Shown piece after piece: positions 3,052 through 3,513 of a DNA stretch of 34,734 nucleotides. Source of the DNA: a virus (Duplodnaviria > Heunggongvirae > Uroviricota > Caudoviricetes); the IMG/VR virus record IMGVR_UViG_2531839454_000020; one strand, written 5' to 3'. Below the pieces are notes generated by a model. It did not search any database. It was given only the letters and a program-made list of their open reading frames with translations, and was not told the origin of the DNA. The stretch's first letter is position 1; every line of letters starts with the position of its first letter. The position numbers were made by a program, and so were the translations under genes.

Positions 3052-3169
3052 AACCTACACTACAAACCTACGCTTTAAAGGGATTGGCCTACACTAGTCA
3101 GTAAACCTACACTATAACACCCTCAAACCTACACTATGAAACCTACACACCTACACTAACCCTACACTT
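3052..3169 (+). repeat. array of 7 to 8 same-orientation CCTACAC(TA) direct repeats, irregular spacing
   Basis: CCTACAC at 3054, 3089, 3106, 3127, 3142, 3150, 3161 plus variant CCTACGC at 3066; most preceded by AAA. Confidence 0.7.
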
Positions 3170-3513
3170 CAATCTCATAAGTGTATGATCTTGAAAGACA
3201 TTTCACCCCACAGACCATAGAATATAAAATTCGAACTAACGTTCTCCTTTTTGCTCGTTTTCTCTCACTACGTTCAAGAAAGATCTCGCAAAAAGAATAC
3301 GGCGTAGCCGTGCGCGAAGCGCCCATCAACACCTTCTAAGACCTGCAAGCAGGATTCGAAAGGGATTGGATAGTTCGCTTCGCTCACGTTCACGCCTACG
3401 GCGTTCACTCGCTTTTGAAAGGATTTTCTTAGAAAGGGATTTAATACTAGTTACTAACTGATTCTAGTAAACGAACGAAGTGAGTAACAATCACTTTCTA
3501 GAAAGGTATTGGT

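Follow-up and report, generated by a model that had tools for sequence, protein, structure and literature searches.

Repeated motif, phased iterons, and GC-rich mini-hairpins in the control region of a prophage family inserted in ycdX: a candidate operator-like array

What may be the function of a short motif that is repeated on both sides of a GC-rich segment in the intergenic region of a temperate prophage? This question is raised by the IMG/VR virus record IMGVR_UViG_2531839454_000020 (Caudoviricetes), a DNA stretch of 34,734 nucleotides that was analysed as a whole (called the window below) and that covers nearly the entire sequence of a siphovirus-type temperate prophage of E. coli, ~37 kb in size and integrated in ycdX. 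The motif, GAAAGGGATT, is concentrated in a 1.25-kb control (intergenic) region, positions 2501-3745, located between a leftward operon and the rightward early operon that starts with the p149 gene. In a preliminary description of this DNA, it was proposed that the repeats could be a second set of binding sites or part of a small structured RNA. The comparison of the prophage with its relatives points to an operator-like array that surrounds the early rightward promoter and offers sites to a DNA-binding protein conserved in these phages, and we consider the chances of this sequence-based assignment to be about even.

The recurrence of the motif was confirmed by comparison with shuffled sequences. 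With no more than one mismatch allowed, GAAAGGGATT gave eight matches in the 34.7 kb of the window against 3.09 ± 1.71 in the shuffles, none of 100 of which reached eight, and five of the eight fall in the 435 bp between 3076 and 3510. The GAAAGGGATT-like copies are found at 3076, 3358, 3417, 3432, and 3501, the copy at 3417 being a variant shortened by one base (GAAAGGATTT); copies at 3193 (plus strand), 3489 and 3663 (both minus strand), and a weak one at 3718 (minus strand), missed in the preliminary description, can be added to these. Weight-matrix scores of at least 17 were confined to 3073-3675, a result that is partly circular because the matrix was built from these very sites. When a loose pattern was used, the density was 5.6 sites/kb in the intergenic region of the window against 0.54 elsewhere.

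The idea of a second set of binding sites gained support from the relatives. Close relatives were drawn from IMG/VR and from E. coli genomes, and syntenic ycdX-inserted prophages of Salmonella (L039-L042) and Proteus (L038), together with a further one of E. coli (L043), were found via homologues of p201, a protein encoded in the window. All of the syntenic relatives have kept the gene order and carry an intergenic region of 1.25-1.7 kb with mosaic content. In the Salmonella and Proteus loci, the motif density was 4.8-7.3 per kb in the intergenic region against 0.46-0.66 in the rest of the locus, and an approximately tenfold enrichment is thereby seen in the control regions of E. coli, Salmonella, and Proteus prophages. 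The motif persists in about ten diverged relatives from these three genera while the iterons and flanks differ, and alignment of 73 sites gave the extended, asymmetric consensus TTCTWG-RAAGG(G)ATTKG of ~16 nt.

The arrangement of the copies is conserved as well. The plus copies are located on the left and the minus copies on the right, at median distances of 382 and 178 nt, respectively, from the p149 ATG (Mann-Whitney p = 1.7e-7, for sites that are related by descent and not independent). A minus copy is present ~27 nt before the p149 ATG in 8 of 9 intergenic regions, another one at 78-88 nt before this ATG in 6 of 9, each time with a different sequence, and tandem plus pairs with a distance of 14-15 bp occur in 7 of 9 regions belonging to E. 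coli, Salmonella, and Proteus prophages. The orthologous site beside the -35 element of the predicted p149 promoter reads GGAAGTGATTGG, GAAAGGAATTGG, GAAAGGGATTGT, or GGAAGGATTT; the letters differ, and all of these variants fit the motif. Since both strands are used in a fixed arrangement, recognition of duplex DNA by a protein common to all relatives would be expected rather than an RNA element.

In the window, the copies designated M1 to M9 can be followed from left to right. M1 (CTTTAAAGGGATTGG, 3073..3087, plus strand) is located inside the array of iterons described below, and its counterparts are found in or beside other iteron arrays (GAAAAGGATTKG in iteron type B and TTTAAAGGGATATCC, twice, in Proteus); a motif copy lies in or beside every iteron array. 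M2 (3190..3204, plus strand) is degenerate in the window (CTTGAAAGACATTTC) and overlaps the -35 element of a weak rightward promoter-like site; at the same position, relatives L027 and L029 carry a perfect GAAAGGGATT. M3 (TTCGAAAGGGATTGG, 3355..3369, plus strand) occupies the 54-nt spacer between the arms of the GC-rich dyad, and AGAAGGAATT and GGAAGGATTT are its counterparts in the same spacer of type B and Salmonella loci. The tandem copies M4 and M5 (TTTGAAAGGATTTTC TTAGAAAGGGATTTA, 3414..3443, plus strand) are 15 bp apart, and the inverted pair of M6 (minus) and M7 (plus) forms the palindrome AATCACTTTCTAGAAAGGTATT at 3487..3512. In the relative L002/L021, at the counterpart of window positions 3481-3516, this imperfect palindrome has become a 36-bp palindrome, GGATACCAATCACTTTCTAGAAAGTGATTGGTATCC. 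An AT-rich centre (3554..3637) separates the plus and minus arms. M8 (TTTGGAAGTGATTGG on the minus strand, 3661..3675) abuts the -35 element of the predicted sigma-70 promoter of p149 (3676..3703, plus strand; TAGATA-16-AATAAT, or TAGACA-16-AATAAT in L005; a consensus match only), and the weak copy M9 (3716..3730, minus strand) is located in the p149 5' leader. M8 and M9, which are the window's representatives of the conserved minus copies at 78-88 and ~27 nt before the ATG, thus bracket the predicted promoter.

Other candidates for these letters were considered as well. Small open reading frames starting at the motif (3366-3461 and 3509-3613) or at the hairpin H7 were rejected because the start codon is located 0-2 nt from the Shine-Dalgarno-like bases and because loops of 3 versus 4 nt shift the frame between relatives. 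Resemblances to Fis, CRP, sigma-54, RcsB, and Lrp sites were rejected by eye. In the search for host-factor sites, DnaA boxes were found only at one mismatch and away from the iterons, and there was no IHF consensus.

The proposed operator-like array would work as follows. A sequence-specific DNA-binding protein, encoded by the conserved backbone of the ycdX prophage family, would occupy the ~16-nt sites in two opposed arms, one formed by plus copies from the iteron array to ~3512 and the other by minus copies in the last ~260 bp before p149, with the GC hairpins and an AT-rich, promoter-like centre between them. Cooperative occupancy of the tandem copies would control the rightward early promoter(s), from which p149 and then the Rha-family gene are presumably expressed, and the array might additionally control access to the neighbouring iteron module.

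The most likely binders are p201 and p59, which are candidate proteins of the helix-turn-helix (HTH)-like type. In p201 (5991..6596, minus strand), two repeats consisting of three helices plus a beta-wing were modelled at pLDDT 82-92, and a single related repeat is present in each of p59 (2306-2485, minus strand) and p77 (5729-5962, minus strand). The three proteins are paralogues sharing the HTH-like segment GI(S/D)xSxFYKxxKKYxI, present twice in p201, and none of them matched a Pfam, PHROG, or NCBIfam family. None of the relatives lacks p59 or p201; p77 is absent from L039, where the motif array remains. The two-repeat organization of p201 would suit tandem sites located 14-15 bp apart. A scan of genome contigs with p201 found nothing, because the collection contains one genome per species.

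Several points weigh against this reading. All of the promoters are consensus matches only, and in the E. coli version, the AT-rich centre yielded no convincing sigma-70 promoter. The relatives cannot be counted as independent samples, and p59, one of the two proteins in which we infer the binder to be, exists as two alleles that are 54% identical, in which the helix segment is nevertheless kept. For the mini-hairpins described below, the absence of G-T/G-U pairs is partly a selection effect because only perfect Watson-Crick palindromes were taken by the scan. Finally, the motif resembles both the p149 ribosome-binding region (TTTTAGAGGATTT) and the R sites of lambda, and other readings therefore have to be weighed.

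The first of these readings starts from the AT-rich centre. Within 3554-3637, stretches of 58-84 nt share 76-85% identity with repeats located between the genes of RB49-like T4-type phages (Krischvirus), and the RB49 spacer ORF164c/ORF165c (L033, 960-1260) contains CCGC-GTA-GCGG, cacttctagtaa, cgcttcgcg, and CTCC-TAC-GGAG, which are pieces of the same kind as in the window. Promoter plus stem-loop units (PeSLs) mediate modular shuffling in the RB49-like phages (PMC2839356). The whole control region could hence be a patchwork of PeSL-like promoter/stem-loop cassettes, in which the motif is a cassette piece with no dedicated binder, for example the relic of a ribosome-binding region or a hot spot of recombination. 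The recombinant joints among relatives that coincide with motif copies (for instance, in L025 and L002) and the similarity of the motif to the p149 ribosome-binding region fit this explanation. However, relic ribosome-binding sites would share one orientation, whereas the orientation of the motif switches in a conserved way; the tenfold enrichment and positional conservation in three genera suggest that the motif itself has been under selection, and a scan of 3545-3640 detected no sigma-70 consensus promoter in the shared segment. The stem-loop component of a PeSL-type unit is represented by H5 and H6. We regard a patchwork lacking a binder as improbable. In the Salmonella relatives, TATAAT-rich promoter-like sites are located on both strands at the position of the AT-rich centre. 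Likeness to the RB49 PeSLs extends to GC stem-loops beside an AT-rich segment and to joints at the elements (PMC2839356); the differences are that no consensus promoter was found in the shared piece and that the RB49 element is antisense to its neighbouring genes, and within the single RB49 spacer examined, the motif copies were not seen to form an array. As judged from these shared sequences, the similarity suggests that regulatory cassettes may have been exchanged between the temperate prophage and lytic phages.

The resemblance to the R sites of lambda leads to another reading, according to which the motif copies are cosB-type R sites for a small terminase (TerS) of the Nu1 family, and the GC-rich segment or H5/H6 corresponds to cosN. 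The complete relatives do encode a TerS of 183-185 aa, matching phrog_57 at E values from 1e-9 to 5e-16 (lambda Nu1 itself, 1e-76), together with a GpA-type large terminase (TerL; 6684-8591 in the window), and CCTTTCT is common to the lambda sites cgTTTCCTTTCT and to the motif when read as its reverse complement, AATCCCTTTCT. Like the lambda sites, the motif is ~16 bp long, A/T-rich around this core, and present in both orientations. Moreover, in a relative linked to phage DCP80, the homologous region is located just upstream of TerL. At the same time, the array is situated ~2.5 kb from TerS and on its wrong side, since TerS lies to the left of p59, p331, and p80 in the complete relatives; upstream of TerS itself, at most one motif-like copy is found. 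In contrast to the three R sites on one side in lambda, at least nine copies, i.e., three times as many, are distributed to the left and right of the GC elements. Among relatives that share TerS, the dyad is not conserved, and the TerL allele is independent of the iteron type. The DNA-binding N-terminus of TerS exists in three alleles (SLNGGGKRW, TINAAKKW, and SLPAVTKW), which co-vary with the ~150 bp immediately preceding the TerS gene; all three alleles are accompanied by the same motif set. This co-variation makes a location of cos upstream of TerS more plausible and weakens the cosB explanation for the array, which we consider highly improbable; the ~150 bp are, by the same sequence comparison, a likely cos site. 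In L025 (6068-6421) and the equivalent regions of other relatives, the allele-linked DNA upstream of TerS adjoins a conserved block (...GGTACTGTTCCACGG...TTTTCGGCAC); the co-variation with TerS follows the pattern of lambda and phage 21. The ends of contigs were not informative about cos: a search with the exact p149 protein yielded only two long bacterial contigs, and the IMG/VR sequences end at repeats or inside genes.

Some further observations concern the terminase genes. In the window, positions 1 to ~276 are an IS256-like transposase fragment standing in place of the Nu1-family TerS gene of complete relatives; the prophage copy in the window probably cannot package its DNA. TerL is represented by two alleles (at least 84% and ~53-59% identical), assorting independently of the iteron type and of the TerS allele. 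GenBank entry PQ671644 (Escherichia phage DCP80; L001 / L034; 141 kb) looks like a T4-like assembly in scrambled order, to which part of a relative of this prophage has been joined; in that part, TerL is 43% identical and the first 1.3 kb have the same iteron/hairpin architecture. The prophage family is highly mosaic.

The next part of the question is what the GC-rich segment itself represents. At 3250-3400, GC accounts for 0.49-0.57 of the bases, compared with 0.25-0.40 in the flanks, with a peak of 57% in 3290-3420, and the contrast noted in the preliminary description is therefore correct. The segment contains an imperfect 21-nt inverted repeat (3301-3321 / 3376-3396, 81% complementary), and the short TCACG/TTCAC repeats that had also been pointed out do exist, turning out to be just the right arm of this inverted repeat. 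The left half of the dyad is composed of two hairpins, H1 (ACGGC-GTA-GCCGT, 3299-3311) and H2 (GCGC-GAA-GCGC, 3312-3322), both of which have a GNA loop on the plus strand; the right half (3376..3404) consists of the arm CGCTTCGC (3376-3383), complementary to H2, and the hairpin H4 (ACGCC-TAC-GGCGT, 3392-3404), with the GNA loop on the minus strand. Two more hairpins, H5 (ATCCC-TTC-GGGAT) and H6 (GCAACC-TTC-GGTTGC), follow at 3514..3542. The dyad layout is shared by type B, type F, and the DCP80-linked relative; in the last of these, the arms GCCGAAGGC...GCCTTCGGC replace the H2/CGCTTCGC pairing, which is a compensatory change.

Among 48 short triloop hairpins from 10 intergenic regions, 45 have GNA or the complementary TNC loops, always closed by C-G. 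H1, H5, and H6 show no variation in the closing C-G pair; the loops of the H1 orthologues are GTA, GCA, GAA, TTT, and TTTA. Scored on equal-length hairpin alignments (a MAFFT alignment of the H5-H6 block was dropped, as it was not structure-aware), four pairs in H5, four in H6, and three in H1 have changed on both sides, and no one-sided changes were detected; in H5 and H6, 97-100% of the cells are paired across the relatives. The hairpins have thus been kept by compensatory changes in their stems. In the E. coli and Salmonella regions, the GNA loop is on the plus strand only in the two leftmost hairpins, H1 and H2, and on the minus strand in the others; in the DCP80-linked region, GNA hairpins are mixed on both strands. 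According to the DNA mini-hairpin rule, a GNA triloop is closed by C-G on a GC stem (PMC13037366, PMC3201870), and d(GCGNAGC) mini-hairpins are unusually stable DNA structures whose RNA forms are much weaker (PMC13037366). Such GNA mini-hairpins were reported at the G4 origin, RSF1010 ssiA (CCGAAGG), and N4 early promoters (PMC13037366).

Is this segment, then, the small structured RNA that was initially considered as an alternative to binding sites? A structured leader or small antisense RNA upstream of an antirepressor-like gene, comparable to the immunity systems of P4 (CI), P1 (c4), and N15 (CA), in which the motif and its inverse copies pair, would be in keeping with several features: the Rha/Ant-like gene downstream, motif/anti-motif pairs such as 3430-3441 with 3489-3500, and strong predicted folds on both strands (z -3.9 and -5.2), the GC-rich segment folding better than shuffles both as RNA and as DNA (z -2.6 to -5.2). 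A terminator-like element can be added to this list, since H1 on the minus strand (3311-3299) reads ACGGCTACGCCGT and is followed by the T-run ATTCTTTTTG, with T-rich tracts located at the same place in the relatives, 4-12 nt from the hairpin. The structural part of the proposal, supported by the compensatory changes and by the folds that surpass shuffles, has thus been upheld; the RNA gene has not. ARAGORN found no tRNA gene, in agreement with the earlier failure to fit one; no Rfam family, C4 included, matched even at E <= 10, the whole window giving 0 matches at the gathering score and 2400-3900 giving only chance-level snoRNA/sRNA hits at E <= 10, and the dyad is absent or reduced in some relatives. 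No conserved promoter/terminator pair for a small RNA gene was found. A leftward small RNA transcribed from a promoter at 3490-3461 was rejected because, as read from the sequence, type B has not retained this promoter. In addition, the conserved minus-strand copies of the motif are not explained by a single-strand RNA element, and the triloops obey the DNA GNA rule, their RNA counterparts being much less stable (PMC13037366). An RNA-based function has, in our estimate, only a small chance of being right.

The dyad is present with iteron types A, B, and F, represented by a single hairpin in types C and D, and missing in type E (L039); it is for this reason an optional module. We read the segment 3299-3404 not as a gene but as C-GNA-G / C-TNC-G mini-hairpins arranged in a dyad, which accompanies some of the iteron/p331 modules. 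Because H1 on the minus strand is followed by ATTCTTTTTG, a leftward terminator or insulator is a simple alternative; on the plus strand, a hairpin plus U-run is not found in E. coli and is present for H6 in Salmonella L040. As far as the sequences indicate, the dyad is most likely a structural or insulating element, acting through leftward termination or through the extrusion of DNA hairpins. The unit GGAG-(G/T)GC-loop-GC(C/A)CGAC(TG) is found as H1, on the left edge of the dyad, in type B and Salmonella loci, and again ~95 nt before p149 (window 3641-3652). In the downstream copy of this unit, the loop varies freely (TTTA, GAA, TAT, TTT, GTTA, and GATA), and the Shine-Dalgarno-like GGAG always precedes the hairpin.

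To the left of the dyad, eight iterons of the CCTAC(A/G)C type (3050..3172, plus strand) are phased at 22-bp spacings beside an AT-rich tract (2991-3050, 78-85% AT). Iterons of six types are found among the relatives, CCTACAC, TTTTTGCCCCTGAA, ATCCCCG, CATCCCTAG, GTCCTATAAC, and CTTGGAAGATTCCA, which replace each other wholesale, and each type is accompanied by its own protein of ~310-360 aa encoded beside p59, with no exception among the loci holding both. Type A is linked to p331 in 17 of 17 loci and type B to p313 in all 10 E. coli loci as well as to a Salmonella homologue with 61-66% protein identity, and each of the four further types has its own protein. There are, consequently, at least six iteron specificities of the p331 family, and the one-to-one pairing implies a specificity pair, consisting either of an initiator and its origin or of a repressor and its operators. 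The p331 protein is an orphan: no match was obtained in family/profile searches, 6 related clusters were detected among 1.8 billion representatives, and the predicted structure, a beta-rich N-domain with a coiled coil, has no fold match. Its C-terminus, ...NYSAYAYAA, bears a resemblance to an ssrA-type degradation tag.

On the basis of this pairing, the iterons and p331 could constitute a host-dependent replication origin, the dyad and right-hand hairpins serving as strand-specific DNA mini-hairpins that mark sites of priming or loading in the opened duplex, comparable to ssiA/ssiB of the IncQ oriV or to the G4 origin, and the motif boxes binding an accessory factor. Eight phased iterons adjoining an AT-rich tract, the exceptionless association of six iteron types with their adjacent proteins, and the motif copy in or beside each iteron array would all be expected of such an origin, and the prophage has no other replication gene. 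The GNA loops on the plus strand at the left (H1 and H2) and on the minus strand rightward fit outward priming, and mini-hairpins are known at the G4 origin and RSF1010 ssiA (PMC13037366). However, p331 does not have a recognizable initiator fold or family, no initiator, primase, or helicase can be recognized, no good DnaA box is located near the iterons, and a heteroimmune repressor with its operators would give the same co-variation of iterons and protein. Nor can the dyad be an essential origin part, given that L039 lacks it and that types C and D have only a single hairpin. An origin at this place is unlikely, though not strikingly so. A more detailed scheme, in which the hairpins are DNA-level signals, would have the p331-family iteron binder open the origin, the C-GNA-G hairpins (plus strand left, minus strand right) mark the strands for outward priming or helicase loading, and a GAAAGGGATT-binding protein gate both the origin and the early promoter, the hairpin cassettes being exchanged with the lytic Krischvirus; it is a rather unlikely combination as a whole. 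The operator-like array around the early promoter remains the preferred reading of the motif.

As for the surroundings of the control region, the leftward operon (minus strand) consists of p59 (2306-2485), p331 (1194-2189), and p80 (936-1178), and the rightward early operon (plus strand) consists of p149 (3746-4195), followed by p110 and the Rha-family protein. The window additionally contains a lambda-type portal, a capsid-protease fusion, tail genes, an M15 endolysin, and a large serine recombinase (31588-33282, minus strand); no recognizable repressor or replication genes were found in the prophage. Upstream of the leftward operon, a strong sigma-70 promoter-like site directed leftward, TTGACA-17-TATACT, is placed within the near-palindrome CATTGACAGTTGTCAATG (window 2828-2858), and its counterpart in type B relatives consists of two perfect TTGACA-17-TATAAT sites; it is probably the promoter of the p59-p331 operon. 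Tandem 18-nt repeats, CTGTGTGTTTAACCAGTG / CTGTGTGTGTTAACAGTG (window 2673-2708), located upstream of p59 and each carrying a CACTG...CAGTG inverted repeat, may be a third set of binding sites. Near-identical copies of the prophage are integrated inside the chromosomal ycdX gene in 58 of 5426 complete E. coli genomes (~1%), and relatives of the family occur in Salmonella, Shigella, and Proteus. When the control region was used as a query, no match was found in a plasmid search, and the longest match in a phage collection was 84 nt. No description of the ycdX prophage family was found in the literature searched.

Arrays of many operator sites are well known from the switches of temperate phages, such as the Cox boxes of P2, the Apl sites of 186, and the gp71 stoperators of mycobacteriophage L5. 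Like these, the array described here consists of asymmetric sites of ~13-16 bp in many copies, some of them in tandem at a helical-scale spacing, located between divergent operons and flanking a promoter, with small HTH-type proteins encoded nearby. Unlike these, it is organized in two opposed arms over ~650 bp, interleaved with GC mini-hairpins and an iteron array, and no homology of the prophage proteins to Cox/Apl or gp71 was detected in homology and family searches. To our knowledge, the motif sequence does not match any known site. The order of iterons, spacer, and large imperfect inverted repeat, with C-GNA-G hairpins on opposite strands of its halves, is reminiscent of the IncQ (RSF1010) oriV, in which iterons are succeeded by GC and AT tracts and by an inverted repeat with ssiA/ssiB. 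The locus differs from this oriV by the lack of RepA, RepB, RepC, primase, and helicase, by the dispensability of the dyad in some relatives, and by being located in a siphovirus-type prophage that is integrated. Taken together, the motif array, the iteron/p331 modules, and the mini-hairpins map the control region and give sites and proteins to work on. Should the hairpins act as DNA structures, the locus would be a natural and compact case in which a temperate phage with double-stranded DNA uses GNA mini-hairpins; otherwise, it would be an operator array of the ordinary sort, serving a new regulator. Compared with the known systems, the locus is of a known kind; what is new is the prophage family, its motif, and the consistent pattern of GNA hairpins.

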